This document shows, piece by piece, positions 40,812-56,942 of a DNA stretch of 64,000 nucleotides. Below the pieces are notes generated by a model. The model saw nothing but the letters and a program-made list of their open reading frames with translations, made no database searches and was not told where the DNA came from. Each line of letters opens with the position of its first letter. Positions within the stretch are counted from its first letter, which is position 1. A program made the position numbers and the translations under genes. Source of the stretch: Planctomycetota bacterium (GTDB taxonomy: Bacteria; Planctomycetota; PLA2; JAEUHO01); the NCBI GenBank assembly GCA_965223505.1, contig CBDCWP010000021.1, positions 128,001 through 192,000 of the forward strand, given 5' to 3'.

Positions 40812-40947
40812 GCCGGACGACTTGCTCCTGGAGGTCTTTGTTGTTCCGTTCCGAAAGCCCGCGGGAATTCTAACCGCGTTCGTCGGCGGGGGGCGCCGAT
40901 CGGCCGGGCCCCGGTCGAAGTCGCGTCCGCCGCAGCTTTCGGGCACG

Positions 40948-42861
40948 ATGCAGACGGTGAAACAGGACCAATTCCTACAGGTCGCCTCGGTGGACGACGC
41001 GCGTACGCGTTGGTACGCGGCGCTCGCGCTCGATCCGCGCCCGGCGGAGCTCGTGCCGCTGGACCGGTCGCTGGGCCGCACCCTCGCCGAAGACATCGTC
41101 GCGCCCGGCGACGTTCCGGCGTTCGACCGCTCGAACGTCGACGGGTTCGCGGTGCGCGCCGCCGACACATTCGGTGCCGACGAGCGAACGCCCCGTCTGC
41201 TGCGGATCGCAGAGGAGTCGATCGATGCCGGTCACGCGCCGACGAAGGAGCTCGAAGCGGGGCACGCGGTCGTCATCGCGACCGGCGGCGTCGTACCGCG
41301 CGGCGCGGACGCCGTCGTCATGGTCGAAGACACGGAGACCGACGGCGACCTGGTGAAGGTCACGCGACCTGTATCGCCGGGAGGACGCATCAGTAACGCC
41401 GGCAGTGACATCACGCGCGGCGAGACGTTGCTGCGCGCGGGCCTGCGACTCTCCGCGCGCGAGACGGGAACGCTCGCGGCGTGCGGCGTCGACCCTGTCG
41501 CCTGTCGCGCACGGGTGCGCGTCGCCGTGCTCTCGACAGGCGATGAGATCGTCGCGCCCGGCACGACTTTGGCGCCGGGGCAGGTGCACGACGCGAACGC
41601 GACGCTGCTCGCCGACGCGATTCGCGAGCTCGGTGACGAAGCGCACGTGCTCGGCATCGCGCCTGACGACGCGGAGCCGTTGCGCCGGATGCTGCGCGAA
41701 GCGTGGGCGGACAGCGACGTGATCCTGCTCTCCGGCGGAACGAGCAAGGGCGGCGGCGACCTCTCGTACCGCGTGCTGGCCGAGGAGGCGGAGATCATCG
41801 TGCACGGCGTCGCGCTGAAGCCGGGCAAGCCGCTGTGCCTGGCGGCGTGGGACCGGAAACCGGTCGTGATCCTGCCGGGGTTCCCGACGTCCGCCATCTT
41901 CACCTTCCACGCGTTCGTCGTGCCCGTGCTCGGCAAGCTCGCGGGACGCGCCGGTTTGCCGGCGTCGACGATCCGCGCCAAGCTCTCCCGTCACATCCGC
42001 TCCGATCGGGGCCGCGCCGAATTCACGTTGGTCAGCCTCGTCGGCGGCGACGACGGCTGGGTCGCGTTCCCGATGGGCAAGGGCTCGGGCTCCGTCACCA
42101 CCTTCGCGCGCGCGGACGGCTTCTTCCAGGTCCCCGCGAACGTGGAGTACGTCGAAGCCGACGACGTGGTCGACGTCACGCTGCTCGGTCGCGACCTGCG
42201 CCCCGCGGCGCTGGTGATCGTGGGTAGCCACTGCACGGGCCTCGACGTGATCGTCGGCGACCTTTCGAAGACGCTGGGCGACGTCAAGGTGATCACCGTC
42301 GGCTCGCGCGGCGGCGTCGACGCGCTGCGCCATGGCGCCTGCGACATCGCGCCGGTGCATCTGTTCGACAAGGAACGCGGCACGTGGAACGAGTCGTTCG
42401 CGCCGCCGGGCACCCGGTTGCTGCGCGGCTACGGGCGAACCCAGGGCCTGGCATTTCGAGCGGAGCACGGCGACCACTTCTCCGGCGACGTCGAAGCCGC
42501 GTTCCTCCGCGCCGCGCGCGACGAGACGCTTCGGTTGGCGAACCGCAATCCTGCGAGCGGCACGCGCATCCTCGTCGAGGAGTTGCTGGGCGACGCGCCA
42601 AAGCCCGCGGGCTGGGCGACGTCGTACACGTCGCACACCGCCGTTGCCGCGTCGATCGCCCAGCGTCGCGCGGACTACGGCATCTGCCTCGCATCGGCCG
42701 CACGCAAGGCCGGACTCGAGTGGAGGCCCTGGCGTGCGGAGCAGTACGACTTCCTGGTGCCGGACGATCGCTGGACGTCTCCGGGCGTCACGGCGTTTCG
42801 CAAGACACTCGCGACGCCGAAGGTGCGCGCCGCCCTCGAGGACGCGGGGTTCGAGCTTTGA
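40948..42861 (+). CDS. moeA: MoeA fused to a C-terminal PBP/LysR-substrate-binding-like domain
   Basis: FDRSNVDGFAV, STGDE, SGGTSKG, KPGKP, LPGFP; C-terminal GSH...GSRGG...NRNPASGTR. Confidence 0.92.
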   Translation: MQTVKQDQFLQVASVDDARTRWYAALALDPRPAELVPLDRSLGRTLAEDIVAPGDVPAFDRSNVDGFAVRAADTFGADERTPRLLRIAEESIDAGHAPTKELEAGHAVVIATGGVVPRGADAVVMVEDTETDGDLVKVTRPVSPGGRISNAGSDITRGETLLRAGLRLSARETGTLAACGVDPVACRARVRVAVLSTGDEIVAPGTTLAPGQVHDANATLLADAIRELGDEAHVLGIAPDDAEPLRRMLREAWADSDVILLSGGTSKGGGDLSYRVLAEEAEIIVHGVALKPGKPLCLAAWDRKPVVILPGFPTSAIFTFHAFVVPVLGKLAGRAGLPASTIRAKLSRHIRSDRGRAEFTLVSLVGGDDGWVAFPMGKGSGSVTTFARADGFFQVPANVEYVEADDVVDVTLLGRDLRPAALVIVGSHCTGLDVIVGDLSKTLGDVKVITVGSRGGVDALRHGACDIAPVHLFDKERGTWNESFAPPGTRLLRGYGRTQGLAFRAEHGDHFSGDVEAAFLRAARDETLRLANRNPASGTRILVEELLGDAPKPAGWATSYTSHTAVAASIAQRRADYGICLASAARKAGLEWRPWRAEQYDFLVPDDRWTSPGVTAFRKTLATPKVRAALEDAGFEL

Positions 42862-43460
42862 TCCGCGGCGCGCTCGTTCTGTGCGGTGGTCACAGCACCC
42901 GCATGGGCGCGCCCAAGGCGCTGCTGCCGTTCGGCGAGGAGCTCATGTTGCAGCGCGTGGTGCGTCTCGTCTCGGAGGCCGTGACGGACGTCGTCGTGGT
43001 CGCGCGCCCCGGTCAGGAGATGCCGCCGCTTCCGAAACACGTGCGGGTCACCTACGACGAGATCCCCGATCAGGGTCCGCTCGGCGGCATCGCGCCGGGC
43101 CTGAAAGTCTCCCGCGCGGACGCGGTGTACGTAACCGGGTGCGACGTTCCGTTCTTGAGAACGGCCGTCGTCGACCTGCTCTTCGACCGGCTCGCGTCGA
43201 ACGACGTCGCCGTGTGCGAGACCGATGGGTTCACGCACCCGCTGGCGGCGGTCTATCGCGTCGGCGTGCTGCCCGTGGTCGAGAAGCTGCTGGCAACCGA
43301 GCGCCGGCGGCCGGTGTACCTCTTCGACCGGGTGCGGACGGTGCGCGTGAACGCGGCCGCGCTTCGGAAGGTCGATCCGAACCTCGACACGCTCGCGAAC
43401 CTGAACACACCGGAGGCCTACGAGGCGGCGCTGCAGTCGCTGTTGGGCGAGACGCCGTGA
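42858..43460 (+). CDS. mobA: Molybdenum cofactor guanylyltransferase
   Basis: LCGGHSTRMG.PK, GPLGGI, CDVP, N.NTP; TTG start overlaps the moeA stop. Confidence 0.92.
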   Translation: MIRGALVLCGGHSTRMGAPKALLPFGEELMLQRVVRLVSEAVTDVVVVARPGQEMPPLPKHVRVTYDEIPDQGPLGGIAPGLKVSRADAVYVTGCDVPFLRTAVVDLLFDRLASNDVAVCETDGFTHPLAAVYRVGVLPVVEKLLATERRRPVYLFDRVRTVRVNAAALRKVDPNLDTLANLNTPEAYEAALQSLLGETP

Positions 43461-43717
43461 TCCGGGTCGAGCTCTACGAGGTGGCGCGGCGGCTGGCAGG
43501 CGTCGCGAGCCTCGAGGTCGAAGCGTCGACCCTGGGCGAGGCGCTCCAGGCGGTCCGTTTGCGATACCCGGTGCTGGAGCCGGACGTGATCGTCGGCCGG
43601 CGCCTGGCGCCGCAGTGGCGCGCCAGCCGCAACGGCCGCGAGTGGATCGAGGATCCGGACACCCCGCTCGAGGTCGGTGACGCGCTCGTGCTCGTGAGCG
43701 CCTTGGCGGGCGGGTAG
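43457..43717 (+). CDS. moaD: MoaD/ThiS-family sulfur carrier
   Basis: 86-aa beta-grasp-like protein ending ALAGG; GTGA overlap with mobA. Confidence 0.85.
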   Translation: MIRVELYEVARRLAGVASLEVEASTLGEALQAVRLRYPVLEPDVIVGRRLAPQWRASRNGREWIEDPDTPLEVGDALVLVSALAGG

Positions 43718-43771
43718 CGGGAAGTCGAACGCGCTCCCGGCGTCCAAGTCGATGGTCACTGGGAGAGTCGC

Positions 43772-44653
43772 ATGCCGTCCAAGAGCGTCCTTGGTTGTGT
43801 TCTGTGTTGCGGGGCCGTCGCAGGGTTCCTCGCTTCGGCCTTCGTGCCGTGGGCGCCGGCCCACGCGGATGACGAGGAAACGGCGCGGCTGTACGTCAAC
43901 TGCCCCGAGGCCTCGGTGCAGCCGATCGTCGACTTCGTCGCGGAGCGGGGCGGCATAGTGCACGACATGGATTCGTTCAAGCGCCTGTTCGCGTCGCGGA
44001 GAGTCCCGCTGTTGCCGCCGCTGCAGTCGGGTGTCGACGTCATCACCGCGATCTACGAGTCTCTTGCCGCGGCCCGGCAAGAGGGCGAGGTGCTCGACGT
44101 CACGAGCTTGCACGTCCGCGAGCGACGGTTCCGCCTCACGGTGCGCATGTCGAGCTACGAGACGGCCGATGCGCTGCGCACGGCGCTCAACACCAACCCC
44201 TACCTGAGACACCGCATGGGGGAGGGCAACCGCGTCGAGCTCGGCAGCTCGTCGCGCACCAAGGACGGGCACGTCAAGCAGGACATCGCCGCGAAGCTGC
44301 CCGAGTCGGTCGGGGACGTCAGGGTTCCCGAGATCGTGCCGGACGTGAGCATTCGCGTCGCGGACGTCGACCGGATCGCCCTGAAGACCGACCTGCGTCT
44401 GATGCAGGCGGGCCCGGAGCGGCGCGATGCGAATCGAAGCCTCGGCGTGATGACGATCTCGCGTGAGTTCGTCTACGAGGCGACCGAGCTGGTGCGCCTG
44501 CGCGCGTTTCTCAAGCTGCTCGCCGAGCACCCGGACTTCACGGTGATCGACGTCCGCTTCACGATCGACGAGAAGGAATCGACGGCCGAGCGCCTGCTGG
44601 TCGGGAAGTCGACGGTGCGCGTCGCGCGCTACGGAGCCAATCCGCCGAAGTAG
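43772..44653 (+). CDS. Hypothetical exported protein with PilN/GspL-like and PilO/GspM-like segments
   Basis: N-terminal signal/TM; VTSLHV...LTV..SSYETADALRTAL..NPYL; LRAFLKLL...FTVIDVRF. Confidence 0.6.
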   Translation: MPSKSVLGCVLCCGAVAGFLASAFVPWAPAHADDEETARLYVNCPEASVQPIVDFVAERGGIVHDMDSFKRLFASRRVPLLPPLQSGVDVITAIYESLAAARQEGEVLDVTSLHVRERRFRLTVRMSSYETADALRTALNTNPYLRHRMGEGNRVELGSSSRTKDGHVKQDIAAKLPESVGDVRVPEIVPDVSIRVADVDRIALKTDLRLMQAGPERRDANRSLGVMTISREFVYEATELVRLRAFLKLLAEHPDFTVIDVRFTIDEKESTAERLLVGKSTVRVARYGANPPK

Positions 44654-44683
44654 GCGCGAGCTGCGACGTCCGCGGAGGGACGC

Positions 44684-45559
44684 ATGGGAAGGCATACGGT
44701 GCTCGCGCTCACGGCGGCAACGGCGCTCGCTCTCGTGGTGCTCGCCCCGAGCTGGTTGGACCGCTCCGCGGATGCGGACGGACAGCCGTCGACCGAGCTG
44801 GTCGTTCGGTGTGCACCCGACCGAGTGCAGTCGATCGTCGACTTCGTGACCCGGCAAGGCGGCACGGTGCACGACCGCGCGACCCTGGAGCCGCTGCGCG
44901 CGAGGGCACGCGGAGCCGCGCCCGGACTGCCGGCGATCAGGTCGATCATCCCGGTCTGGGACGGCCTGCACGAGACGCTCTCCGTCGTCAACGCAAGCGC
45001 CGGTCGGCATCCGGTCTCGCTCTCCCACGTGGACATCCAGGACCGTCGCATGCAGCTCACGGTCGAGACGCAAGACCGGAGTCTGATCGACGCGCTTCAA
45101 CGGGCCCTGCTGAAGCACCCGGTCGTCGCGGCGCGCGTCGCCGGCGCCAACCGTCCCGTCGAGCGCGCTACCGCGAGGAAGGACCGGAGCGGATCGTGGC
45201 GCGCCGACCTCACGGTTCATTTCGGGCGACCTGCCGAAGCGAAGCCGCCGACAGAGGACGCCGAGAGGACGATTCGCCTCGATGATCTGAAGACGGCATC
45301 CAAGCGTGCCGGGGTCGAGCTGATCTACGCGTCGAACGAGCACCTCGAGGCACATCGGCGCACCGGCCTCGCCACGATCTGGCGCGCGGTCACATACGCA
45401 CGCGTGGAGTCCGACGGTCTGCAATCGCTCTTGCGCGAACTCGAGTCGATCCGCGGCGTGAGCGTCGCCGTGCTTCGCGTTTCGGTCGATCCGGAGGGCG
45501 CCGCCGCGTTCGAGAAGGTCAACGTCCGCGTGGCCAGACGCATCCACTGGCGGGACTGA
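44684..45559 (+). CDS. Paralog of 43772..44653
   Basis: Shares L.V.C....VQ.IVDFV...GG.VHD...L and the overall layout with the upstream gene. Confidence 0.6.
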   Translation: MGRHTVLALTAATALALVVLAPSWLDRSADADGQPSTELVVRCAPDRVQSIVDFVTRQGGTVHDRATLEPLRARARGAAPGLPAIRSIIPVWDGLHETLSVVNASAGRHPVSLSHVDIQDRRMQLTVETQDRSLIDALQRALLKHPVVAARVAGANRPVERATARKDRSGSWRADLTVHFGRPAEAKPPTEDAERTIRLDDLKTASKRAGVELIYASNEHLEAHRRTGLATIWRAVTYARVESDGLQSLLRELESIRGVSVAVLRVSVDPEGAAAFEKVNVRVARRIHWRD

Positions 45560-45678
45560 GTTCCTGACGAACACGTGTCGATTGAAATCGCAGCGTTCGA
45601 CGTTGCGCGCCCGCGGCTATGCTGGTCCGGGGCAAGCGGCTACGTGAGGTGGTTGGAGCGCTCGACGTCTCGACCCGC

Positions 45679-47793
45679 ATGGTGCACGCGCAACGGAACC
45701 ACCGACGACCGAACCGGGGTCTGCTCGCCCTGGGACTCGCCGCTGCGCTTCTCACGGCGCTGCTCGGCTGCGGCGACGGCGAGCTCGATTTCGTCTTGCC
45801 CTCGGACGCCGTCTTCTCGGTCACCAACCCGGCGGGGATGCCCGTCGCCGGCGCGACCGTCTTCCTGGTGCCGGCATCGGATATCGACACCGGTGACGTC
45901 ACCGGAAACGACGTTCTCTCCGGCGCCGCCGAGACCCGCGACGAACCGCTCGAAGACGCCGTTCGCCTGCGCGGCGCCTCGTACCCGCGGGGCGTCACCG
46001 ACGCCGGCGGTCGCGTCCTCATCGCCGACGTTCCGTTCGGCACCTACTTCTGGTTCGTCCTGCCCGCGGCCGGCGACACCGAGCACCTTCCCGGTGGCGA
46101 AGGCTGCCGGCTCGCCCGGCAGAGCACGACGTTCCTGGGCACGACCACGTCGATCCGCCTCACGTCGCAGCCCTCCGCTGCGGCGGCCTTCGTCGGATCC
46201 ACGACCTGTCTGGCTTGTCACAGCGCGCACGGCGGCTTTCGTCAGCACGCACATCGACTCGCCTTCACGGTGCCGGGGCAGCTCTCGGCGCTGCAGGACG
46301 CGACGCGCTACCCGAACATCCAGGGCGGCTGGGCGACGTTCCTTCCCGCCGCCGTTCACACCGGCGGCACGCCCGTCTACTTCTCGGACTTCGACGGCGG
46401 GCGCGAAACCGACAAGTTCAAGACGTCGCTCAGCGATCCGCGCCCGGCCGAGACGCTCTTCGTGATCGCGTGGCTCTGGCGGGACACCGCGGACAACCGC
46501 TTCAAGATCACGCTCGAGAACGTCATCAACGCGATCGATCCACCGCGAACGCTCGTCGTCGAGCTGACCTACGGCGGGCCGTTGCACATGCAGCGCAGTC
46601 TCGTGAGCGTCCCGGGGCGCAACGGACGCTACCCACTGCTCCAGTGGCAGTCGGAAGGCGACGAGACGAAGTTCGACCGAACGCGCAAGGTGTTCCGCGA
46701 CTACCGACTCGACTCGTTCTGGAGCGCGGGCACGCAGACGTTCACCGACCCGCCGGTCGATACCGCCTTCGAGGGCAACTGCACCGGCTGTCACTCGAAC
46801 GGGTTCGAGCGCTTTCGGGACCCGGGCACCAACGAGTGGCTGTCGCGCGCCGTGTCCGACGTCGGCGGCGCTTTCGACATCGACGGCGACGGACCCGCCG
46901 ACGAGATCAACCTCGGCTGCGAGACCTGCCACGGCGCCGGCTCGGAGCACGTGGCCTGGGCGCAGGCCAACCCCGTCTCGTCGGCCGCGCGGTTCATCGT
47001 GTCGAACGCGTACTTGAGCCCGTCACGCGACATGCAGGTGTGCGGCCGCTGCCACGACCGCGTCGTCGGCAACGGCCCGCATCCCACGGGCGAGCCGCTC
47101 GATCCGCAGGGGCGGCGCGCCCGGCCCGGCATCAGCCGCATGCAGTTCCTCGCAAACCACGTCACGCGCAAGGGGCCCGATGCGGCCGACTATTGGAACG
47201 ACGACCTGCACAGCCGCAACCACTACCAGCAGTACGCCGACATGTTGAAGTCGAAGAAACACAGGAACGACCGCATCCTCACCACGTGCACGGACTGCCA
47301 CGAGAGCCACGGCAACGGCCCCTTCGTGCGGCATCTGCGCGCGGATCCCTCCGACGCGAACAGCGCGCTGTGCCAGCAGTGCCACCTGACCGACCACTTC
47401 CAACACATGTTCGACGAGACCGGCACGACCCACGCGGGCGACGCGACGACCTGCGTGCGCTGCCACCAGACATGGGCATCGCGCGCGGGCGCCGGACGGT
47501 ACGGGATCATCATCACCGGCGCCACCGGCACGGCGCTCGACCTTCAACGGACGTACTTCCAGAACGACCGACGCAGCCACCTCTTCCTCGGCGTACCGGG
47601 AAGACTGCATCCCGATGTCGCGGGCGTGCTTCCGGCGTTCGCCATGCCGATCCCGTTCACGAACGAGTGCGGGGCGGGCTGCCACAGCGTCGTCAATCTG
47701 CAGAACCTCAAACCGACAAACGGCGTCGAGATCGACGTCTCGCGCCGCCCGTTGCCGGACCTGGGACGGGGTGCATCGGGAGACGACCGATGA
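45679..47793 (+). CDS. Multiheme cytochrome c lipoprotein (7 CxxCH plus 1 CxxxCH)
   Basis: LLGC lipobox; N-terminal beta-sandwich; CLACH, CTGCH, CETCH, CGRCH, CTDCH, CQQCH, CVRCH, CGAGCH. Confidence 0.92.
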   Translation: MVHAQRNHRRPNRGLLALGLAAALLTALLGCGDGELDFVLPSDAVFSVTNPAGMPVAGATVFLVPASDIDTGDVTGNDVLSGAAETRDEPLEDAVRLRGASYPRGVTDAGGRVLIADVPFGTYFWFVLPAAGDTEHLPGGEGCRLARQSTTFLGTTTSIRLTSQPSAAAAFVGSTTCLACHSAHGGFRQHAHRLAFTVPGQLSALQDATRYPNIQGGWATFLPAAVHTGGTPVYFSDFDGGRETDKFKTSLSDPRPAETLFVIAWLWRDTADNRFKITLENVINAIDPPRTLVVELTYGGPLHMQRSLVSVPGRNGRYPLLQWQSEGDETKFDRTRKVFRDYRLDSFWSAGTQTFTDPPVDTAFEGNCTGCHSNGFERFRDPGTNEWLSRAVSDVGGAFDIDGDGPADEINLGCETCHGAGSEHVAWAQANPVSSAARFIVSNAYLSPSRDMQVCGRCHDRVVGNGPHPTGEPLDPQGRRARPGISRMQFLANHVTRKGPDAADYWNDDLHSRNHYQQYADMLKSKKHRNDRILTTCTDCHESHGNGPFVRHLRADPSDANSALCQQCHLTDHFQHMFDETGTTHAGDATTCVRCHQTWASRAGAGRYGIIITGATGTALDLQRTYFQNDRRSHLFLGVPGRLHPDVAGVLPAFAMPIPFTNECGAGCHSVVNLQNLKPTNGVEIDVSRRPLPDLGRGASGDDR

Positions 47794-48410
47794 TCCGCGT
47801 TTGTCTGCTCCTTTGCGCGACGTCGGCCGTGGTGGCCAACCTCTTGCCCGCGTCGCGCCATGCTCCCGCCGCGGCCGACGAAGAGAAACCGTGCTTCATC
47901 GGCGCCGCGAAATGCAAGCACTGCCACTTCCGGCATCACAAGACGTGGAAGCAAAGCGGCCTCGCCCAGGCGTTCGAGGCGCTGAAGCCGGGCGCGGCCG
48001 CCGAGAAGAAGAGGTCGAGCGGGCTGGACGTGAAGAAGGACTACACGAAGGACCCGAAGTGCCTGAAGTGCCACACGACCGGCTACGGCACCCCCACCGG
48101 CTATCCCGTGCCGGTGGCCGATGGGTGGACGGCCGAAGAGCAAGAGCGCGCGAAGATCAATGAAGGCGTGACGTGCGAGGTCTGCCACGGCCCGGGCAGC
48201 CTCTACGCGCCCTACAAGCGCAAACACAAGGACTACAAGCGCTCCGCCATCGTCGAGCGCGGCGCGATCGCGCCGGTGTCGTCCAAGACGTGCGACCAGT
48301 GCCACGTGCGCGAGTGTCCGACGATGGGGTCCGACTACCGTTTCGACTTCGCCGCCAAGCGCCGCTCGAAGCGCATTCACTCACGCGTGCGGCTCAAACA
48401 CCCGCACTGA
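47790..48410 (+). CDS. Tetraheme cytochrome c554-like protein
   Basis: Signal peptide; FIGAAKCKHCH, CLKCHTTG, GVTCEVCHGPGS, CDQCH; ATGA overlap. Confidence 0.9.
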   Translation: MIRVCLLLCATSAVVANLLPASRHAPAAADEEKPCFIGAAKCKHCHFRHHKTWKQSGLAQAFEALKPGAAAEKKRSSGLDVKKDYTKDPKCLKCHTTGYGTPTGYPVPVADGWTAEEQERAKINEGVTCEVCHGPGSLYAPYKRKHKDYKRSAIVERGAIAPVSSKTCDQCHVRECPTMGSDYRFDFAAKRRSKRIHSRVRLKHPH

Positions 48411-48426
48411 GGAGAGAACCCACCCG

Positions 48427-49950
48427 TTGACCCGGCACGCCCCCCTGCCGCTTCGCGTCGTCTGTGCCTTCCTCGCCCTCGCCGCCGGCGCGCTGGCCGC
48501 GACGGCCGACGACGACCTGCCGGCGCCGGTCCAACCGCCGCCGCCGACGCCCCTGGAGGCCGAGTCGCCTGGCGAAGCCGACAGCGAGGACGTCGCCGAC
48601 GACGACGAGGAAGCGATCCTCGACGAGACGTTCGACGAGGAACCGCTCGGCGCGTTCGACGAGGACGAGCTTCCGGTCCTGACCGCCGCACCGCCAAGGC
48701 TCACCTTCTCCGAGCTGTTTCACGGCTCGATCCGGGTGCGCTACCACGGCCGCTTCACGGGCAGTGACTCGGACAACGACGGGTTTGCGTATCTGCGCCT
48801 GAACTTCCGCGACGAGGACGACGTCGGTCTCTCGGGCTCGTTCTACGGCCGCCTGAGCCACGACATCGACGGGCACGGCGACGACGGCAGCTTCTTCGTC
48901 TTCGACTCGGTCACCGACTCGTTCACGCACCGCGTGAACGGACGCGTCTACCACGCCTACGTGGACTACCGCCCGTGTTGCGGAACGCCCCTCAACCGTG
49001 TCCGTGTCGGCCGGCAGCAGATCGACGGCGGCGAGTTCTTCCTCATGGACGGCGTCCACGTGCGCCTGAGCGAGTACGGACTCCGCCGGGTGCAACTTTC
49101 GGTGTTCGGCGGCGTTCCCACGCACCTGTTCGAAGGCTCGCCGGACGGCGACGTCATCGCCGGGGCGTCGCTCTCCGTGCGACCCTGGGGCGGCGCCGAG
49201 GCGCGCGCGGACTTCGTGTACCTCGAAGACGACAACCAGTTCTACGGCGAGGTCGAGAACGATCTGTTGACCCTGTCACTGCGGCAGACCGTCGGCCCGT
49301 TCGCGACGGCGCGCGCCTCCTACCAGCACTTCAACGGCGAACCGCGGTACGGCGCTTTCGCGTTCGACGCGTATCTGCCGAGGCGCCGCGCGCTCGTCCG
49401 CGGTGCGTTCCGGGGCCTGTTCACCGCGCAGAACGAGCAGGTGTTCGACCTCGACCCGTTCTTCGCCGTTGCGCAGCGGCTCGAGCCGTACTTCGACGCG
49501 CACCTGGCCGTCTCGAAGGAGCTCGGACGCTGCTTCCACGTCGAAGGCGGGATCGCGACGCGCCGGCTCTTCGACGACGCCGACGAGGGCACGTTCAATC
49601 GCGAGTACCAGCGCTACCACCTGAGCCTCTCGTCGTTCGATTGGCCGTGCCACGCGTTGTCCATGTCGCTCACCGGCGAATGGTGGCAGGGCGACGAAGA
49701 CATCGCGTCCGTGACGTTCGATCTCGACTACAGGCCGAGCGAGCGCTGGCGCATTCGCGCGGGAACGGACTTCGCACTGTATCGATTCGACTTCTTTGGC
49801 AACCGCGAACGGCAGAACGCACGCGGCGTGTTCGTACGCGCGACGTACCGGCCCGGCGAGCGTTGGCGCTTCGACGGACGGGTGCGCGTCGACCACGACG
49901 ACTTCGACACGTACACGACCGTTCGGTTCGGCGCGGAGATGGACTTCTGA
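48427..49950 (+). CDS. Outer-membrane beta-barrel (putative porin of a porin-cytochrome complex)
   Basis: Signal peptide, acidic linker, many alternating amphipathic strands, terminal Phe (GAEMDF); lies between multiheme genes. Confidence 0.78.
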   Translation: MTRHAPLPLRVVCAFLALAAGALAATADDDLPAPVQPPPPTPLEAESPGEADSEDVADDDEEAILDETFDEEPLGAFDEDELPVLTAAPPRLTFSELFHGSIRVRYHGRFTGSDSDNDGFAYLRLNFRDEDDVGLSGSFYGRLSHDIDGHGDDGSFFVFDSVTDSFTHRVNGRVYHAYVDYRPCCGTPLNRVRVGRQQIDGGEFFLMDGVHVRLSEYGLRRVQLSVFGGVPTHLFEGSPDGDVIAGASLSVRPWGGAEARADFVYLEDDNQFYGEVENDLLTLSLRQTVGPFATARASYQHFNGEPRYGAFAFDAYLPRRRALVRGAFRGLFTAQNEQVFDLDPFFAVAQRLEPYFDAHLAVSKELGRCFHVEGGIATRRLFDDADEGTFNREYQRYHLSLSSFDWPCHALSMSLTGEWWQGDEDIASVTFDLDYRPSERWRIRAGTDFALYRFDFFGNRERQNARGVFVRATYRPGERWRFDGRVRVDHDDFDTYTTVRFGAEMDF

Positions 49951-51008
49951 TGAACACGCCCGCACGAAAATGCGTGATCGGACTCCTGCTGTTCACCGTC
50001 TATCTGGTGGGCTGCCGCCTGTTCGCCCCGCCGGAGTGGCGCCCGGGCAGCGCACGCGCGCCGGTCGAGTTCGTCGGTGGACCGCGCATGGACCACGCCG
50101 CGCACGTCGAGCGCGGTCTCGCGTGCGCCGACTGCCACGCGCCCGATCCCAGGACGGGCGAACCCGGATCGCCTTCCCGCGACGACTGCGCGCAGTGTCA
50201 CGACGAGATCGACGAAGCCTGGCCGGCGCAGAAACGCGTCGCCACCGCGTTCTTCCGACCCGACGGAACGCCCCGATGGCGGCGCGCCGTCGCGGACTAC
50301 GACCCCGAGGTCATCTTCGATCATCGCGGACACGGCGCAATGAGCTGCCTCTCATGCCACGGCGCGGTGACGCGCCAATCGCGACGGGTGGCGGGCGAGT
50401 TGCACACGATGGACCAATGCATGCACTGCCACGAACGCCAGACGGCCGCGAACGAGTGCGCGACGTGCCATCGCGTCCTGCGCGACGACAAGGCGCCCGC
50501 GAACCACCGGTACCTGTGGAAGGAGCGCCACGGGCAGATCGTTCGTAATCACGGATCGATGGAGGCCGGCCGCTGCGACATCTGCCATCGCGACGCGTCG
50601 TATTGCGACGACTGCCACCAGGACGAGCCGCCGCGCGACCACACGGCGCTATTCCGGATCCGCACCCACGGCGTTCACGCGGCCATGGACCGTCAGAAGT
50701 GCGCGACGTGTCACATGACCGACTTCTGCCAGCGCTGCCACGAGAACACGCCGCCGCGCTCGCACCGCGGCGTCTTCGCAACGGGACGCAACACGCACTG
50801 CGTGCAGTGCCACTTTCCGGTGACCCAGACCCGCTCGTGCCGCGTGTGCCACTTCGAGAATCCGACGCACGACACGGCGCCGGATCAGCCGCCGTCGCAC
50901 TTCCCGGGGATGAGCTGCCGCAACTGTCACAACGCCATCGGCCAGGGCGGCGCGCGTCCGCTGCGTCACCTCGACAACGGGCAAGTTTGCGAGTCTTGCC
51001 ACCGCTAG
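49950..51008 (+). CDS. 13-heme cytochrome c (c3-like repeats), probable lipoprotein
   Basis: YLVGC lipobox; 13 CxxCH in 352 aa; [MF]DH..H distal His pairs; TGATG overlap with the porin gene. Confidence 0.92.
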   Translation: MNTPARKCVIGLLLFTVYLVGCRLFAPPEWRPGSARAPVEFVGGPRMDHAAHVERGLACADCHAPDPRTGEPGSPSRDDCAQCHDEIDEAWPAQKRVATAFFRPDGTPRWRRAVADYDPEVIFDHRGHGAMSCLSCHGAVTRQSRRVAGELHTMDQCMHCHERQTAANECATCHRVLRDDKAPANHRYLWKERHGQIVRNHGSMEAGRCDICHRDASYCDDCHQDEPPRDHTALFRIRTHGVHAAMDRQKCATCHMTDFCQRCHENTPPRSHRGVFATGRNTHCVQCHFPVTQTRSCRVCHFENPTHDTAPDQPPSHFPGMSCRNCHNAIGQGGARPLRHLDNGQVCESCHR

Positions 51009-51018
51009 CGGACTTGGC

Positions 51019-51396
51019 CTAGGTCTCATGGATCGACGGGACCACGAAAAACACTGGGCCGAAGAACTGCGCCATGGCGATCAAGGGCACCAAGATCCGG
51101 AACGACCACCGCTTCGTCTTGTGATGGAACCGGCGCATGGCGATGTAAGCGCCGATGGCGCCGCCGAAGACGACGTAAAACCAGAGCGTCGCCTCGGCGA
51201 TGCGCCGCTGTCCGCGCTGCGCCCGCGCCTTGTCACTCCGAAACAGCGCGAATGCGAAATACGACATCAAGACCCCCAGCATCCAGAGGAAGACCAACAT
51301 GTTCTCGGGCGCATGCCAGTGCTTCGGCACGGTCAAGCAGAAGATCCCGATGACGGCGGCGGAGCCGAGGATGTACTTGGCGTCGTGGCGGTTCAC
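51019..51396 (-). CDS. DUF1294-family membrane protein
   Basis: DKARAQRGQRRIAEATL...GGAIGA..AMRRFHHKTK..SF. GTG start inferred. Confidence 0.85.
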   Translation of the reverse strand: MNRHDAKYILGSAAVIGIFCLTVPKHWHAPENMLVFLWMLGVLMSYFAFALFRSDKARAQRGQRRIAEATLWFYVVFGGAIGAYIAMRRFHHKTKRWSFRILVPLIAMAQFFGPVFFVVPSIHET

Positions 51397-51431
51397 GCGC
51401 ACATCTTGCCGGAGCGGCCGGATCACGCGCC

Positions 51432-51437
51432 TAGAAT
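51432..51437 (+). promoter_or_regulatory. -10 box, probable leaderless promoter of the aor-fdh-tup unit
   Basis: TAGAAT 6 nt before ATG 51444; no SD sequence. Confidence 0.5.
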
Positions 51438-51443
51438 GCGTAC

Positions 51444-53255
51444 ATGCCCCCCGGTGGATACCACGGCCGCTACGGTCACTTCGACCTGGAGCGAACCGAG
51501 GGGGCGCTGCGTCCGCTCTCCGACGACGTGCTGCGGCGCTTCCTCGGCGGATCGGGTCTGGGGGCATGGCTCCTCATGCAAGAGAGCGCAGGCGGCTACG
51601 ACCCGTTGGGGCCCGAAGCGCCGATCGTCATCGCGCTCTCGCCGCTGGTCGGTTCGCCGCTCACGACCAGCGCGAAGTTCGCCGTGGTCACGAAGTCGCC
51701 GCTGACGGAGCGCATCAACGACGCGCTCTCGAGCGACCGTTTCGCCATCGAGCTGAAGCGCGCCGGCATGGACGCATTGGTCGTCACCGGCTGGTGCGAC
51801 GACTGGTCGGTACTGGTCGTGGACGACGGCGCGATGCGCCTGGAGCCGGCGGACGACCTCGTCGGTCTGTCGTCGCTCGAGGCCGAGGAACGCCTGCGCA
51901 AGAAACACGGCGCGACGTTTCGCTTCTTCGGCATCGGCCCCGCGGGCGAAAACGGCGTGCGCTACGCGTCGGCGTCGGGCGACAGCCGGCACGCCGGCCG
52001 CGGCGGCACCGGCGCCGTCTTCGGATCGAAGCGGCTCAAGGGCGTCCTCGTGCGCGGGACGACGCCATGCGAGGTGGACGACCGTGAAGCGGTGCTCGCG
52101 CTGGCCAAGGAGCTGTCGGCGAAGTCGCTGGGCGCCGGGACCGCGAAGTACCGCGAGCTCGGGACGGTCGCGAACGTCCTCGTGATGAACCGGCTCGGGG
52201 CGCTGCCGACCCGCAACTTCAAGGAGGCCACGTTCGAAGGCGCCGAGCAGATCTCCGGCGAGGCGTTTCACACGACGCCCGACAAGATGCGCAAGCACTG
52301 CGCCGCGTGCACGATCGGCTGCGAGCACGTGTTCGCGTCCCGGAGCGGCCGGCAGGTGCGCCTGGAATACGAAGGCATCTTCGCGCTCGGCCCGCTGTGC
52401 GGCATCGACGACCGGGACGTGATCCTCGAAGCGGCGGCACGCTGCGACGACCTCGGGCTCGACGTCATCTCCGCCGGTGGCACGATCGCCTTCGCCATGG
52501 AGTGCAGGGAGAAGGGCCTGCTCGAGAACGCACCGTCCTTCGGCGACGGGGACGGATTGCTGTCGTTGCTGGACGACATCGCGCACCGGCGCGGACTGGG
52601 CGACCTGCTCGCGGAGGGCTCGCGGCGCGCGGCGCTGATCGTCGGCGGCGGCGCCGAGCACTTCGCGTGTCACGTCAAGGGACTCGAGCTGCCGGGGTAC
52701 GAACCGCGCGCGCTGCAGGCGATGGGACTCGGTCTCGCCGTGGGTGCGCGCGGCGCGGATCACAACCGCTCGGGCGCCTACGAGGAGGACTTCCGCTCGG
52801 GCGCGGACCGCTTCGTGGCCGACGACGCCAAGGGCCCTGCGGCGGCGAACAGCGAGACGCGGGCGGCGATCCTGGACAGCCTGATCCTGTGCAAGTTCCT
52901 GCGCGGCGTGTTCGAGGACCTCGAGGCGGAGAGCGCGCGGATGCTGTCCGCGATCACCGGCTGGGACGTCACGGCCGCCCCGTTGCATCGAACAGGCGAA
53001 CGGATCGTGACGCTGAAGAAGCTCTTCAATCTGCGCGAGGGCTGGGAGCGGTCGGAAGACACCCTCCCACAACGGTTTCTGAGCGAAGCCCTGGACGGCG
53101 GCGCTTCGTCCGGGGCCGCGTTGAGCCCCCACGACCTCGACCGTATGATCGTAAGCTACTACCGCGCGCGCGGTTGGACCGACGACGGCCGGGTTCCCGC
53201 AGAGCGGATCGAGAGCCTCGGGCTGAGTGACGTCCAGCCGGCGCCGAAGAGGTAG
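51444..53255 (+). CDS. aor: Aldehyde:ferredoxin oxidoreductase (AOR/WOR family, tungsten)
   Basis: KSPLT, IGPAGE, GRGGTGAVFGSK.LK, CAACTIGC, EYE, DDLGLD, KGLELPGYEPR, RGADH, LILCKF. Confidence 0.93.
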   Translation: MPPGGYHGRYGHFDLERTEGALRPLSDDVLRRFLGGSGLGAWLLMQESAGGYDPLGPEAPIVIALSPLVGSPLTTSAKFAVVTKSPLTERINDALSSDRFAIELKRAGMDALVVTGWCDDWSVLVVDDGAMRLEPADDLVGLSSLEAEERLRKKHGATFRFFGIGPAGENGVRYASASGDSRHAGRGGTGAVFGSKRLKGVLVRGTTPCEVDDREAVLALAKELSAKSLGAGTAKYRELGTVANVLVMNRLGALPTRNFKEATFEGAEQISGEAFHTTPDKMRKHCAACTIGCEHVFASRSGRQVRLEYEGIFALGPLCGIDDRDVILEAAARCDDLGLDVISAGGTIAFAMECREKGLLENAPSFGDGDGLLSLLDDIAHRRGLGDLLAEGSRRAALIVGGGAEHFACHVKGLELPGYEPRALQAMGLGLAVGARGADHNRSGAYEEDFRSGADRFVADDAKGPAAANSETRAAILDSLILCKFLRGVFEDLEAESARMLSAITGWDVTAAPLHRTGERIVTLKKLFNLREGWERSEDTLPQRFLSEALDGGASSGAALSPHDLDRMIVSYYRARGWTDDGRVPAERIESLGLSDVQPAPKR

Positions 53256-53272
53256 CGGAGGTCGAGCCCGAC

Positions 53273-56107
53273 ATGAACTCGCCGTTGACCGCGGACACGG
53301 AAGCCACCGAAGCGCCGGCCAAGACCGTCACGCTGGAGATCGACGGACAAGAGGTCACCGTCCCCGAAGGCACCACCGTCTGGCAGGCCGCCAAGGACAT
53401 GGGCATCGACATTCCGGTGCTTTGCCACGATCCCAAGCTCGATCCCGTCGGCGTGTGCCGCATGTGCGTCGTCGAGGTCGAAGGTGCGCGCACCCTGGTC
53501 GCGTCGTGCGTGCGCGACTGCGAAGACGGCTTGAAGGTCAAGACGGGCTCCGAGACCGTCGTGCGCAACCGCAAGGTGCTCACCGATCTGTTGATGGCGG
53601 ATCAGGACGCGACCAGCCGCCGCGACGAGAAGACCAACGACGACGAGCTGTTCAGCCTCGCCCGCGAGTTCCAGGTCGACGGCTCGCGTTGGCCCCGCGG
53701 CAACGGCCGTCCCGACGACGACTCGTCGCCCGTCATCTCGGTGGATCACCAGGCCTGCATCCTTTGCGACCGCTGCATTCGCGCCTGTGACGACATCCAA
53801 TTCAACATGGTCATCGGCCGCACCGGCAAGGGCTATGCGACGCGCATCGGCTTCGACCTGAACAACCCGATGGGCGACTCGACCTGCGTGGAGTGCGGCG
53901 AGTGCGCATCGGCGTGTCCGACCGGGGCGCTCACCAACAAGCCGATCACCGTGCCGATTCGGCCGCCCGAGACGCTCGAGAAGGTCGACTCCGTCTGCCC
54001 CTATTGCGGCGTCGGCTGCGCGCTGACGTTCATGGTCGACAGAGAAGAGAACAAGGTCGTCTACGCCGAGGGCCGTGACCCGAGCGCCAACGAGGGGCGG
54101 CTGTGCGTCAAGGGCCGTTACGGCTTCGACTACGCGACGCACAAGCACCGGCTGACCAAGCCCCTGATCCGCAAGGAGAGCTCGTACCCGAAGGGGCCGC
54201 TCAGCGCGAACATGCAGCGCCGGGACGACGGCACGCGCGGCGAGAGCGTGTATCCCGACTACGACGAGGCGCTGAACCACTTCCGGGAAGCGACGTGGGA
54301 CGAGGCCCTCGATCTCGTGGCAAGCAAGCTCAAGTCGATTCGCGACGAACACGGCCCGCAGGCGCTCGCCGGCTTCGGCAGCGCGAAGTGCTCGAATGAA
54401 GAGGCGTATCTCTTCCAGAAGATGATCCGCGCGGTGTTCGGCACGAACAACGTGGACCACTGCACGCGGCTTTGCCACGCGTCCAGCGTGGCCGCGCTGC
54501 TCGAGACGATCGGCTCGGGCGCGGTCACGACCGTGTACGGCGACATCGAGAACTCCGACGTCGCGCTCGTGACGGGCACGAACACGACCAGCAACCACCC
54601 CGTCGCAGCGACCTTCTTCAAGGAGGCCGCGAAGAACGGCACGAAGCTCATCATCGTGAACCCGCACCGGCCCGAGCTGGCCGATCACGGCGAGTACGTT
54701 CGCATCCGGCCTGGCAGCGACGTCTCCTTCTACAACGCCATCATGAACGTCATCCTCGAGGAGGGCCTCGAGGACCGCGCGTACATCGAGAAGTTCACGG
54801 AGAACTTCGATGCGCTCAAGGAGGTCGTTGCGCGCTACACGCCCGAGGTCGCGGCGCCCATCTGCGGCATCTCGGCCGACGAGATCCGCGACCTGGCGCG
54901 CACCATCGGCAACGCGAAGGCGATGATCATCTTCTGGGGCATGGGCATCTCGCAGCACGTGCACGGCACCGACAACGCGCGCAGCCTCATCTCGCTGTGC
55001 CTGATGACGGGCAACGTCGGCCGCCCGGGTACGGGCCTGCATCCGCTGCGCGGCCAGAACAACGTCCAGGGCGCCAGCGACGCGGGCTTGATCCCGATGG
55101 TCTACCCCGACTACGTGCCGGTCAACGACCCCGACGCGCAGAAGCGCTACGAGGAAGCCTGGGGCGTCTCGCTCGATCCGAATCCCGGCAAGACGGTGGT
55201 CGAGATCGCGCACGCCGCGGTCGAGGGTGAGCTCAAGGGCATGTACATCATGGGCGAGAACCCGTTCATGTCCGACCCGAACGTGAAGCACGCCCGCGAG
55301 GGGTTCATGAACCTCGACTTCCTCGTCGTCCAGGACATCTTCCTGACCGAGACCGCCGAGGTCGCCGACGTCGTGCTGCCCGCGACGAGCTACTTCGAGA
55401 AGACGGGCACCTACACGAACACGGACCGGCGCGTGCAGATCGGCGCGACGACGCTCGAGCCGCCCGGTGAAGCCCGGCTGGACTGGGAGATCCTGTGCGA
55501 GGTCATGACGCGCATGGGCTACGAGCAGTCGTACGACGACATCGAGGACGTCTTCGTCGAGTTCAGCGAGATGACGGAGAGCTACAAAGGCCTGCGCTAC
55601 CGCCACCTGGGCGGCCCGGGCAAGCTCTGGCCGTGCGCCGATCCCGACAACTCCGACGGCGAGGTCGTGCTGTTCGGTGACGGCTTCCCGACGCCGTCGG
55701 GCCGCGGCAAGTTCTCGCCCGCCGAGGTCATCCCGCCGGCCGAGCTTCCCGACGAGGAGTACCCGTTCGTCCTGAACACGGGGCGGACGCTGCAGCACTG
55801 GCACGGCGGCTCGATGACGCGTCGCGCAAAGGTGCTCGACCAAATCAACCCCGAGGCGTTCTGCGAAATCCACCCCGACGACATGGCGTCGCTCGGGCTC
55901 GAGGACGGCGGCATGGTGCGCTTGAGCACGCGCCGCAACTCCATTCGCGTGAAGGCCGTCGCGAGCACGAAGACCTCGAAGGGCAGCGTGTTCATGCCGT
56001 TCCACTACCGCGAGGCGGCGGCGAACCTGCTGACGACCGACACGCTCGACCCGATCGGCAAGATCCCATCCTTCAAGTTCGCAGCGCTCAAGGTCGAGAA
56101 GGCGTGA
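53273..56107 (+). CDS. fdhF: Formate dehydrogenase alpha subunit (FdhF/FdsA-type, Cys ligand, cytoplasmic)
   Basis: 2Fe-2S (IPVLCH..CRMC..C), two 4Fe-4S (CILCDRC, CVECGEC), CPYCGVGC, CTRLCH, LRGQNNVQG; no Tat signal. Confidence 0.93.
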   Translation: MNSPLTADTEATEAPAKTVTLEIDGQEVTVPEGTTVWQAAKDMGIDIPVLCHDPKLDPVGVCRMCVVEVEGARTLVASCVRDCEDGLKVKTGSETVVRNRKVLTDLLMADQDATSRRDEKTNDDELFSLAREFQVDGSRWPRGNGRPDDDSSPVISVDHQACILCDRCIRACDDIQFNMVIGRTGKGYATRIGFDLNNPMGDSTCVECGECASACPTGALTNKPITVPIRPPETLEKVDSVCPYCGVGCALTFMVDREENKVVYAEGRDPSANEGRLCVKGRYGFDYATHKHRLTKPLIRKESSYPKGPLSANMQRRDDGTRGESVYPDYDEALNHFREATWDEALDLVASKLKSIRDEHGPQALAGFGSAKCSNEEAYLFQKMIRAVFGTNNVDHCTRLCHASSVAALLETIGSGAVTTVYGDIENSDVALVTGTNTTSNHPVAATFFKEAAKNGTKLIIVNPHRPELADHGEYVRIRPGSDVSFYNAIMNVILEEGLEDRAYIEKFTENFDALKEVVARYTPEVAAPICGISADEIRDLARTIGNAKAMIIFWGMGISQHVHGTDNARSLISLCLMTGNVGRPGTGLHPLRGQNNVQGASDAGLIPMVYPDYVPVNDPDAQKRYEEAWGVSLDPNPGKTVVEIAHAAVEGELKGMYIMGENPFMSDPNVKHAREGFMNLDFLVVQDIFLTETAEVADVVLPATSYFEKTGTYTNTDRRVQIGATTLEPPGEARLDWEILCEVMTRMGYEQSYDDIEDVFVEFSEMTESYKGLRYRHLGGPGKLWPCADPDNSDGEVVLFGDGFPTPSGRGKFSPAEVIPPAELPDEEYPFVLNTGRTLQHWHGGSMTRRAKVLDQINPEAFCEIHPDDMASLGLEDGGMVRLSTRRNSIRVKAVASTKTSKGSVFMPFHYREAAANLLTTDTLDPIGKIPSFKFAALKVEKA

Positions 56108-56916
56108 GCCGTAGCCTCGCGCTGCTCCTGGCGCTCGCGGTCTCTCTGGGCGCTTGCGGGGACGGCGCGAAGCGCGTCCGCCTCGTCACGACGACGTCGA
56201 CGCACAACTCGGGTCTCCTCGAGCACTTGCTCGCCGAATTCACACCGCAGACCGGCATCGAGGTCGATGTCCTGGCCGTGGGAACGGGCAAGGCGCTCGC
56301 GCAAGGGCGGCGCGGCGACGCGGACCTGCTGCTCGTACACGCGCGCGAGCTCGAAGACGCGTTCCTCGCCGAGGGCCATGCGATCGAGCGGCGCGATGTG
56401 ATGTGGAACGACTTCGTAATCGTCGGGCCGCCGTCCGACCCGGCGGGCATTCGCGGCATGAAGGAACCGGCGGCGGCGCTCGCGAAGATCGCGAAGACGG
56501 GGGCGCGCTTCGCGAGCCGTGGGGACCGGTCGGGCACCCACATGCGAGAGCTCGCGCTCTGGAAGGCGTCCGGTGTCGATCGCACGTCCAACGGCGGTTA
56601 CGTGGAGGCGCGGCTCGGCATGGGCGGCTCGTTGATCTACGCGGACGAGAAGCGCGCGTACCTGCTCGCCGACCGCGGCACGTACCTCTCGCACATGAAG
56701 CGCCTCGATCTCGAGCTCGACATTCTCGTAGAGGGCCACGCCTCACTTCGCAATCCCTACGGCGCGCTGTTGATCGACCCAGTGCGACACCCGGTCGGCA
56801 ATGCGGAGGGCGCCCGCAAGCTGTTCGACTGGTTGACCTCGCCGGCCGGTCAGGCGCGAATCGCTTCGTTCCAGGTTGACGGCAATCCGCTCTTCCATCC
56901 CAATGCCGCCAAGTAG
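56104..56916 (+). CDS. tupA: Tungstate ABC transporter binding lipoprotein
   Basis: LGAC lipobox; TTTS signature, SGLL, VGTG.AL, VH, SRGD.SGTH, DRGT, NPY. Confidence 0.92.
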   Translation: MSRSLALLLALAVSLGACGDGAKRVRLVTTTSTHNSGLLEHLLAEFTPQTGIEVDVLAVGTGKALAQGRRGDADLLLVHARELEDAFLAEGHAIERRDVMWNDFVIVGPPSDPAGIRGMKEPAAALAKIAKTGARFASRGDRSGTHMRELALWKASGVDRTSNGGYVEARLGMGGSLIYADEKRAYLLADRGTYLSHMKRLDLELDILVEGHASLRNPYGALLIDPVRHPVGNAEGARKLFDWLTSPAGQARIASFQVDGNPLFHPNAAK

Positions 56917-56942
56917 CTCGTGATCAAAATAGGAGATCGACC

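Follow-up and report, generated by a model that had tools for sequence, protein, structure and literature searches.

The stretch of DNA analysed here (64,000 nucleotides of contig CBDCWP010000021.1 from an uncultured planctomycete; hereafter, the window) contains a run of four genes on the forward strand, which we call g1 to g4. Three of them encode multihaem cytochromes and the other, g3, encodes a predicted outer-membrane beta-barrel (Table 1). The assembly comprises 5.15 Mb and is 92% complete, and the window has a G+C content of about 68%. We hold, with moderate confidence, that g1 to g4 make up a single operon encoding a Pcc-type conduit across the outer membrane, through which electrons would flow outward.

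The genes are closely coupled: g1 and g2 overlap in an ATGA, g3 and g4 overlap in a TGATG, and g2 and g3 are separated by a 16-nucleotide gap. Translation of the window gave 25 haem motifs across g1, g2 and g4. An earlier, sequence-only reading had described this coupling, the three junctions and the 25 putative haem sites. It had also listed the products as a lipoprotein with seven CxxCH and one CxxxCH, a c554-like tetrahaem, a barrel ending in Phe and a 352-residue lipoprotein with 13 CxxCH. All of these features were re-derived in our analysis. A six-frame census of the whole assembly identified just 20 open frames of at least 80 residues with three or more CxxCH motifs, three of which were g1, g2 and g4. 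As three of so few such frames fall in this operon, and as the haem motifs of g1 and g4 are conserved, the haem clustering is beyond chance. The region 43500-51700 was covered by a single contig of a public sequencing run with zero differences, although that run may itself be the source of the assembly. A promoter and terminator scan of 43400-51700 was uninformative: nothing promoter-like turned up, and a single terminator-like site compares with 4.4 expected. A search of public runs for RNA covering the region listed none, the matching runs being DNA.

Table 1. Coordinates of the four genes, of features within them and of related loci elsewhere. Positions are those of the window unless a contig (C) or locus (L) prefix is given.
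Feature	Position	Strand	Description
g1	45679-47793	+	704 residues; lipobox LLGC (Cys31); seven CxxCH plus CGAGCH at residue 664
g1, OcwA/NrfA-related haem core	46909-47481	+	about residues 411-601; profile matches
g1, atypical haem motif CGAGCH	47668-47685	+	CxxxCH, residues 664-669; C664, C668 and H669 invariant in 53 of 53
g2	47790-48410	+	206 residues; four CxxCH
Shine-Dalgarno-like GAGGAGAG	48409-48416	+	upstream of the g3 TTG start, between g2 and g3; read from sequence
g3	48427-49950	+	TTG start; 507 residues; no haem motif; C-terminal end MDF
g3, signal peptide	48427-48501	+	residues 1-25, ALAA before TADDD; helix 7-24 in model; probable cleavage site
g3, acidic Pro-rich disordered N-terminal tail	48502-48717	+	residues 26-97; net charge -23; pLDDT <50 at residues 21-72
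g3, barrel	48718-49950	+	residues 98-506; 22 predicted beta-strands, C-terminal Phe, no plug domain; AlphaFold2
g4	49950-51008	+	352 residues; lipobox LVGC (Cys22); 13 CxxCH
g4, ActA-type pentahaem module	50076-50474	+	residues 43-175, haems 1-5; PDB sequence and fold matches
g4, 8-haem tail of dihaem units	50475-51005	+	site of extra dihaem repeats in relatives; motif spacings
ActA/QrcA-like, cbb3 and HAO-like loci of the same genome	C38:116019-120990, C10:129012-133889, C30:133271-135328, C24:32417-34000
c/b561 fusion loci of relatives (L011, L012, L013, L015, L016, L017, L022, L025)	e.g., L012:9530-11665	-	Pfam scan

The product of g3 has the features expected of an outer-membrane barrel. 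Its AlphaFold2 model, built from 89 sequences, was predicted with good confidence (mean predicted local distance difference test (pLDDT) 84.6, predicted template modelling score (pTM) 0.77) and contained 22 strands, only the disordered tail ahead of the barrel and just two loops longer than about 20 residues. The C-terminal Phe was present in 132 of 138 full-length homologues, in which the N-terminal tail was Pro/Ala-rich and of variable length. A structure search of 48,161 solved chains ranked the 22-strand barrels of TonB-dependent receptors first (Cir, 2hdf_A, Z 17.8, root-mean-square deviation (rmsd) 4.4, 358 residues aligned); in the same search MtrB (6r2q_B) matched with Z 13.4, rmsd 6.9 and 329 residues aligned. 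These predictions bear out the barrel that the sequence-only reading had seen at this position and place it in the size class of TonB-dependent receptors, so that it would not be too narrow for a haem chain.

The barrel family proved difficult to name. Foldseek with the g3 barrel returned generic barrels only, at TM scores below 0.5; there was no match to g3 in NCBIfam and none above cut-off in Pfam, where MtrB_PioB (PF11854) scored 11.3 bits (E 0.12) against a cut-off of 23. The barrel-family profile gave no matches to PDB sequences at E <=10. A protein atlas held the family as unnamed clusters only, and a cluster look-up of 10 distant homologues returned either "hypothetical protein" or no name. 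TonB-dependent receptor barrels of 22 strands hold a folded plug domain. As g3 is plug-wide yet encodes no plug, its lumen presumably must be filled by something else, and we propose that g3 is the sheath for a haem wire.

The proposed wire is the product of g4, in which haems are packed at a density of about 25 residues per haem. In an alignment of 57 relatives all 13 CxxCH motifs and 11 further His residues were invariant, and the lipobox Cys22 was nearly so. Based on this conserved lipobox, cytochromes of the g4 family are predicted to be lipoproteins and not free periplasmic proteins. The N-terminal pentahaem module of g4 matched the ActA subunit of alternative complex III and its kin, both by sequence (6lod_A, 4.3e-8; 8k9e_A, 3.1e-7; 6f0k_A, 2.6e-5) and by fold (6f0k_A, Z 8.8, rmsd 3.1, 131 residues aligned; 6btm_A, Z 8.0). 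The NCBIfam model for QrcA scored 46.7 bits on g4 against a cut-off of 180. Foldseek with the g4 model found nothing at E <=0.001. In a wider fold search ActA alone stood out; MtrA was not among the matches listed, which is no evidence that the two folds differ. The tail that follows, with the last eight haems, had no counterpart among solved structures in these searches.

Haem number in the g4 family was variable in a regular manner. The commonest counts over 106 members were 13 haems (52 members), 17 (17 members) and 15 (11 members). Six members with 13, 15, 17, 19, 21 and 23 haems (P0159, P0160, P0172, P0162, P0165 and P0161) had motif spacings that differed only by zero to five inserted units of about 35 + 10 residues, i.e., a dihaem unit of about 45 residues that is added mid-protein, both ends being constant. 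The ActA-type head and this stepwise series of 13 to 23 haems are among the new features of the family, and the series is a natural experiment on how the length of a wire is set.

To study whether g3 and g4 might associate, their complex was modelled from g3 residues 90-507 and g4 residues 23-352 in three runs. The median score was 0.56 (runs 0.19, 0.60 and 0.56) and the best control scored 0.01, an outcome classed as "weak support". The runs shared at least 6% of contacts and the partner pLDDT was at least 65. In calibration, 116 of 157 solved complexes attained the mark used, as did two of 215 mismatched pairs; at scores of 0.60 or below only 18 of the 157 solved complexes passed, in addition to both of the passing mismatches. 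Together with the gene pairing described below, we take these models to suggest that g3 and g4 may form a physical complex, with g4 as the proposed haem wire threaded through g3.

The third component, g2, is a tetrahaem cytochrome of the c554 type. It scored 66.5 bits against Pfam Cytochrome_C554 (PF13435; cut-off 20.8), with its four CxxCH, and matched the solved c554 structure 1bvb at E 1.7e-15. With 76.6 bits, it fell well short of the cut-off of 400 set for the NCBIfam equivalog of Nitrosomonas c554 (NF043010). The protein has a Sec-type signal, and the mature form is basic (isoelectric point about 9.5). A g2 gene was found within the locus in 13 of 16 related loci and in two of eight others (15 of 24), and a c554-like tetrahaem is a frequent third component of the module outside anammox genomes. 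We propose that g2 acts as a periplasmic electron shuttle, a role that had been raised for it from the sequence and with which its recurrence beside the barrel is consistent.

The remaining cytochrome, g1, is an octahaem lipoprotein. All seven CxxCH motifs and the CxxxCH were invariant among 53 aligned family members. At position 47683, within the CxxxCH motif, a single contig from a second sample (depth 2.9) has A and not C, which may be a strain variant or an error. The N-terminal region of g1 appears beta-sandwich-like, and CarboxypepD_reg is weak in g1 itself (13 bits) but is a precomputed assignment on many homologues. The family had 476 database matches, is unnamed and forms atlas clusters in several phyla. 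Conserved lipoboxes in both g1 and g4 uphold the earlier suggestion that the two large cytochromes are lipid-anchored.

The profile of g1 matched OcwA (6i5b_A, E 3.3e-13; profile positions 410-592 against chain positions 158-341, about 180 of 668 positions), with weaker matches to 6qvm_A (3.2e-7), MtrA (6r2q_A, 1e-4) and NrfA (2e-3). OcwA is described, in a passage of PMC6703420, as a cell-surface terminal reductase of Thermincola potens. The models for known surface decahaems scored below their cut-offs on g1 (OmcA/MtrC TIGR03507, 15.7 bits against 209.3; Pfam Mtrc-MtrF_II-IV_dom, 23.7 against 30). Genes of the g1 type were found in only four further related loci (L011, L018, L028 and L032). 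No locus that carries g1 also has an MtrC-like gene, and hhalign of g1 with the MtrC-like proteins of relatives matched the signal peptide alone (probability 45%). As there is no homology beyond the signal peptide and the two types of gene do not occur together in these loci, g1 seems to have replaced the outer partner without being homologous to it. We regard g1 as an accessory that varies between modules and as a candidate for the outer or terminal cytochrome.

Analyses of related genomes showed that the barrel and the g4-type cytochrome belong together. The barrel family had 565 representatives at E <=0.001 among 1.84 billion proteins and was present in 21 of 41 close genomes. In a set of 201 evenly drawn Planctomycetota genomes it was found in 44, and in 38 of 171 genera; the best E was 1e-69 or lower in 37. 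A single g3 protein used to query the contigs of relatives found none, and a 17-sequence alignment found them. Searches with tblastn placed g4 directly after g3 in all 16 related loci and in all of eight others, three of the latter from anammox genomes, which makes 24 of 24 loci. Gene calling based on GC3 recovered the same order in four of five extra loci from metagenome-assembled genomes, the barrel being uncalled in L037; this caller misreads some antisense frames, for instance over the MoeA gene. The conserved core of the module is g2-g3-g4, and g1 is a variable accessory.

The anammox relatives were identified in our survey of the phylum, in which the genomes of one family all (four of four) had hydrazine dehydrogenase above the NCBIfam cut-off and so are of the anammox type. 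Their barrel homologues matched the profile at E 1e-84 to 1e-89, and the adjacent g4 homologues were 31% identical to g4; one of these has 338 residues, 14 CxxCH and a lipobox. Passages of PMC4245776 describe a two-gene pcc of Ca. Kuenenia stuttgartiensis, made up of a porin-like protein and a cytochrome of 338-344 residues with 12-14 haems, which is thought to span the outer membrane alone. The g3-g4 pair belongs to the same family as the anammox pair, which fits this published locus by its description.

The neighbours of the core in relatives suggested where electrons might enter and leave. In a Pfam scan of 12 related loci, eight encoded a protein of 615-711 residues in which an 11-haem c domain (10-haem in L025) was fused to a cytochrome b561-type membrane domain (Table 1). 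We take such fusions to have the architecture of CbcL-like quinol oxidases, with more haems than CbcL. Four loci (L012, L015, L019 and L024) encoded decahaems with MtrC/MtrF domains II/IV (E 1e-33 to 1e-45); these MtrC-like lipoproteins have 819-1136 residues, 9-10 haems and two MtrC/MtrF II/IV domains. Together, the loci of relatives add to this core the parts of a plausible route by which electrons could travel from quinol to the cell surface. Cytochrome-b-like fusions beside pcc genes are also discussed in part of PMC4245776. In addition, related loci hold ResB/CcsA cytochrome maturation genes and Rrf2 regulators. In L016, genes for a 4Fe-4S dicluster protein (Fer4_11) and for an NrfD membrane protein lie two genes downstream of g4; L024 encodes a 4Fe-4S protein near g4. 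FeS and NrfD proteins thus occur in two loci (L016:10899-13627 and L024:13174-14999), close behind the g4 homologue and in company with a small tetrahaem or nonahaem. They form an NrfCD/ActBC-like module, a possible partner for the ActA-like head.

The organism's own genome differs in what surrounds the core. No CbcL-like, MtrC-like or PF01292 protein was found in it above threshold; as the assembly is 92% complete, this is to be read as not found, rather than absent. Hydrazine dehydrogenase also gave nothing above its cut-off. The genome does encode two ActA/QrcA-like pentahaems, which lie close to NrfD genes, and also has a CcoO/CcoP-like fusion of a cbb3 oxidase and an octahaem of the HAO-like type (Table 1).

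The operon itself sits in a molybdenum/tungsten cofactor neighbourhood (40987-43717 and 51444-58219, both on the forward strand). The upstream part holds genes for MobA and for a MoeA that carries a fused PBP-like domain, along with a short open reading frame of MoaD size. The downstream part encodes an aldehyde:ferredoxin oxidoreductase, a 944-residue FdhA-like molybdopterin enzyme and a PBP_like_2 ABC transporter; the 944-residue, formate-dehydrogenase-like enzyme has N-terminal 2Fe-2S/4Fe-4S domains. The aldehyde:ferredoxin oxidoreductase and the formate-dehydrogenase-like protein are possible electron sources. Directly upstream of g1 are two tandem genes for secreted paralogues (43772-44653 and 44684-45559, forward strand) of 293 and 291 residues that are 29% identical (E 7e-25). 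We considered these as part of the module and rejected them, as they match no Pfam family, were found in none of 16 related loci and occurred only weakly, on other contigs, in four of 40 relatives. A DUF1294 small membrane protein (51019-51402, reverse strand) is convergent with the operon and lies 11 bases past the end of g4. A large subtilase (Peptidase_S8) is encoded at 38268-41168 on the reverse strand; the 966-residue call overruns the MoeA start on the opposite strand, and its true start is uncertain.

The model that we favour places these parts in order; that g3 and g4 form a complex, how the lipoproteins are oriented, what g1 and g2 do and which way electrons flow are our reading of the gene structure, motifs, barrel prediction, synteny and domain homologies described above. 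The g3 protein would sit in the outer membrane as a 22-strand barrel that has no plug. Lipid-anchored g4, with its ActA-like head and dihaem-repeat tail, would fill and plug the lumen of g3 and so wire the periplasm to the surface. Electrons would be carried through the periplasm to g4 by g2, which the acidic tail of g3 may recruit. As the variable outer partner, g1 might then pass electrons to extracellular oxidants such as humics or minerals of Fe(III)/Mn(IV). Outward flow, i.e., respiration on extracellular acceptors, is favoured. As no CbcL-like protein was found in the genome, quinol electrons would enter elsewhere, perhaps via either of the two ActA/NrfD-type complexes that it encodes. 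The sequence-only reading had likewise proposed a trans-outer-membrane conduit, and the barrel prediction, the g3-g4 pairing and the CbcL-like and MtrC-like partners of relatives all support such a function.

Several observations weigh against this model. The g3:g4 complex fold was a weak pass with no defined interface, and the g4 model itself was of moderate quality (pLDDT 75.8, pTM 0.48). The Kuenenia pair was found by BLAST with Geobacter Pcc proteins and is called, in the same passages of PMC4245776, distantly related to other Pcc proteins. As the organism's own genome yielded neither CbcL-like nor MtrC-like genes, both the inner-membrane entry and the outer exit are unsecured; in addition, the presence of a cbb3 oxidase means that the organism need not depend on extracellular acceptors. 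These points about the genome also suit inward flow through the same conduit, in which a partner cell or donors such as Fe(II), Mn(II) and reduced humics would feed g4 and g2 and then the respiratory chain, e.g., cbb3, much as in the two-component PioAB and MtoAB systems. Haem chains are reversible in principle. A barrel with one long cytochrome is also like the conduits without an outer cytochrome that are treated, for oxidisers of Fe(II), in parts of PMC4245776 and PMC5566968. We nevertheless consider inward flow unlikely, based on relatives that join the core to CbcL-like and MtrC-like proteins, on the neighbouring aldehyde:ferredoxin oxidoreductase and FdhA-like protein, which are electron-donor enzymes, and on a Brocadia orthologue reported, in the portion of 10.1101/855817 drawn on here, as expressed on electrodes during electron export. 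CbcL-like and MtrC-like proteins are parts known from metal reducers. The g1 protein raises a different objection: its family is widespread outside conduit loci and, with its NrfA-type kinship, this spread means that g1 may be a periplasmic enzyme. In a further reading, no electrons would cross the outer membrane; g1 would be a periplasmic OcwA/NrfA-like enzyme that reduces or oxidises a soluble nitrogen, sulphur or metal oxyanion, with g2 and g4 as its periplasmic donors and g3 as a substrate porin. The match of the g1 profile to NrfA and to the NrfA/c554/OcwA group fits this, as does the reduction of nitrite and hydroxylamine by OcwA (stated in part of PMC6703420). Only six non-motif His residues are conserved in g1 for its eight haems, which would leave room for open-coordination catalytic haems. 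However, the conserved unit is g3-g4, and g1 occurs in only five of the loci examined, with relatives replacing it by non-homologous MtrC-like surface decahaems. With 22 strands and neither plug nor long loops, the barrel greatly exceeds the size that passage of a solute would call for, and no part of the operon reached the cut-off of any curated enzyme family, so that the cluster matched no characterised enzyme system outside extracellular electron transfer among these families. Taken together, these points make this reading quite improbable.

The position of g4 could also differ from that in the favoured model. ActA is the membrane-anchored pentahaem of alternative complex III, seated on an FeS/NrfD module. 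The homology of the g4 head to this pentahaem would be explained if g4 were anchored at the inner membrane, with its head on a quinol-oxidising FeS/NrfD module, its repeats spanning the periplasm and its C-terminal part in the barrel. The FeS and NrfD genes close to g4 in L016 and the 4Fe-4S protein near it in L024 agree with such an arrangement, and mid-protein dihaem insertions between constant ends (13-23 haems) are what a spacer between fixed docking ends would show. Against this, g2 is conserved, soluble and c554-like, and relatives have CbcL-like proteins, both of which point to a diffusible periplasmic step; by our estimate 13 haems are probably too short for a wide periplasm. None of the g4-family sequences inspected has Asp at position +2 from the lipobox Cys; in E. 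coli a lipoprotein without Asp at +2 goes to the outer membrane, a rule of that species that may not hold in Planctomycetota. We therefore give an inner-membrane anchor little chance. There is a similarly slim prospect that g4 relatives are length-adjustable, single-polypeptide wires from the inner membrane to the surface, in which the zero to five extra dihaem repeats match the width of the periplasm. If true, a single-protein wire of this kind would be a design not described among the porin-cytochrome systems surveyed.

The favoured outward conduit bears on organisms that are abundant in soils, sediments and groundwater, the non-anammox Planctomycetota, for which a route of extracellular electron transfer has not been worked out. 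Surveys mention merely "novel multihaem clusters" in Planctomycetota (10.1101/2022.03.26.485925, in the part drawn on here), and a passage of PMC10732223 gives FeGenie PCC hits in Phycisphaerae. A defined module, with its c554-like tetrahaem, 22-strand barrel and ActA-headed wire, supplies both annotation markers for metagenomes and targets for biochemistry. Our literature search found no paper describing the planctomycete module, the ActA-like head or the repeat series, although supplementary tables outside the search may list planctomycete loci.

Porin-cytochrome clusters are well known, and many phyla have already been mined for them; the module described here differs from them in its parts. 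With MtrCAB, PioAB and MtoAB (6R2Q) it shares a haem wire sheathed by a barrel and an optional surface cytochrome, and MtrB is a structural neighbour of g3. However, the MtrB barrel is larger than the 22-strand g3, and the wire here is a 13-haem lipoprotein. The impression from the sequence that these parts are unlike decahaem MtrA and MtrC held, since PF11854, TIGR03507 and the DmsE/MtrA model TIGR03508 (29.1 bits on g4 and 42.3 on g1, cut-off 192.2) were all below cut-off. Above cut-off, Pfam assigned only generic cytochrome families and Cytochrome_C554 to the operon proteins, and NCBIfam assigned nothing. OcwA resembles g1 in its haem core; both are NrfA/c554-related and candidates for the last outward step, but OcwA has nine haems and 526 residues in a Gram-positive organism, and g1 has eight haems (one CxxxCH), 704 residues, a lipobox and the beta-sandwich-like N-terminus. 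ActA of alternative complex III (6F0K, 6LOD and 6BTM) and QrcA resemble haems 1-5 of g4 by sequence and fold. The homology is at the level of the domain only: no ActB-F genes adjoin, and g4 has eight more haems and is always beside a barrel.

Closer likenesses are found among systems named as Pcc. PCC4, which parts of He et al. 2017 (PMC5566968) report in Planctomycetes, is also a porin with three multihaem cytochromes, including a tetrahaem, and is proposed to be a conduit that has no outer cytochrome. Its cytochromes have 4, 5 and 10 haems, in contrast to 4, 13 and 8 here. It often includes an FeS protein and has a conserved inner-membrane protein of five helices, a membrane protein of a kind that does not adjoin our operon. 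In the anammox pcc, including that of Kuenenia, the two genes are of the same kinds and likewise arranged, the barrel preceding a cytochrome of about 340 residues, and the pair is proposed to cross the outer membrane with no separate outer cytochrome. It differs in that g1 and g2 are not within 8 kb and in that g3 is only 26-28% identical to the anammox barrels; the Kuenenia cytochrome is called periplasmic in the passages of PMC4245776 drawn on here, whereas the g4 family has a conserved lipobox. The composition of the operon had been thought unusual as a whole, but a barrel paired with a 13-haem cytochrome is not unprecedented, since the pair is of the same family as that of the anammox bacteria.

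Two of the features by which Shi et al. 2014 recognised Pcc systems, a barrel protein and a multihaem gene always beside the barrel gene, were found here, the latter in 24 of 24 loci. By its description, OmbB-OmaB-OmcB of Geobacter sulfurreducens likewise has a porin-like protein of 18-22 strands, an adjacent multihaem cytochrome, a lipoprotein outer cytochrome and variable outer parts; its periplasmic cytochrome has 8 haems and its outer one 12, in place of the 13-haem lipoprotein, tetrahaem and octahaem of our operon. ExtABCD of the same species (PMC6148476), a conduit that is likewise encoded by four genes, also combines a single barrel with two cytochromes that are lipoproteins. It differs in having a periplasmic dodecahaem, an 18-strand barrel and lipoproteins of 5 and 12 haems, and the NCBIfam models ExtKL, ExtN and ExtO scored far under their cut-offs on the operon proteins. 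Ext clusters share no sequence similarity even among themselves, and their outer lipoproteins are exchanged between species (PMC6148476). The exchangeable outer lipoproteins around the conserved core of the planctomycete module appear to parallel this Geobacter pattern.

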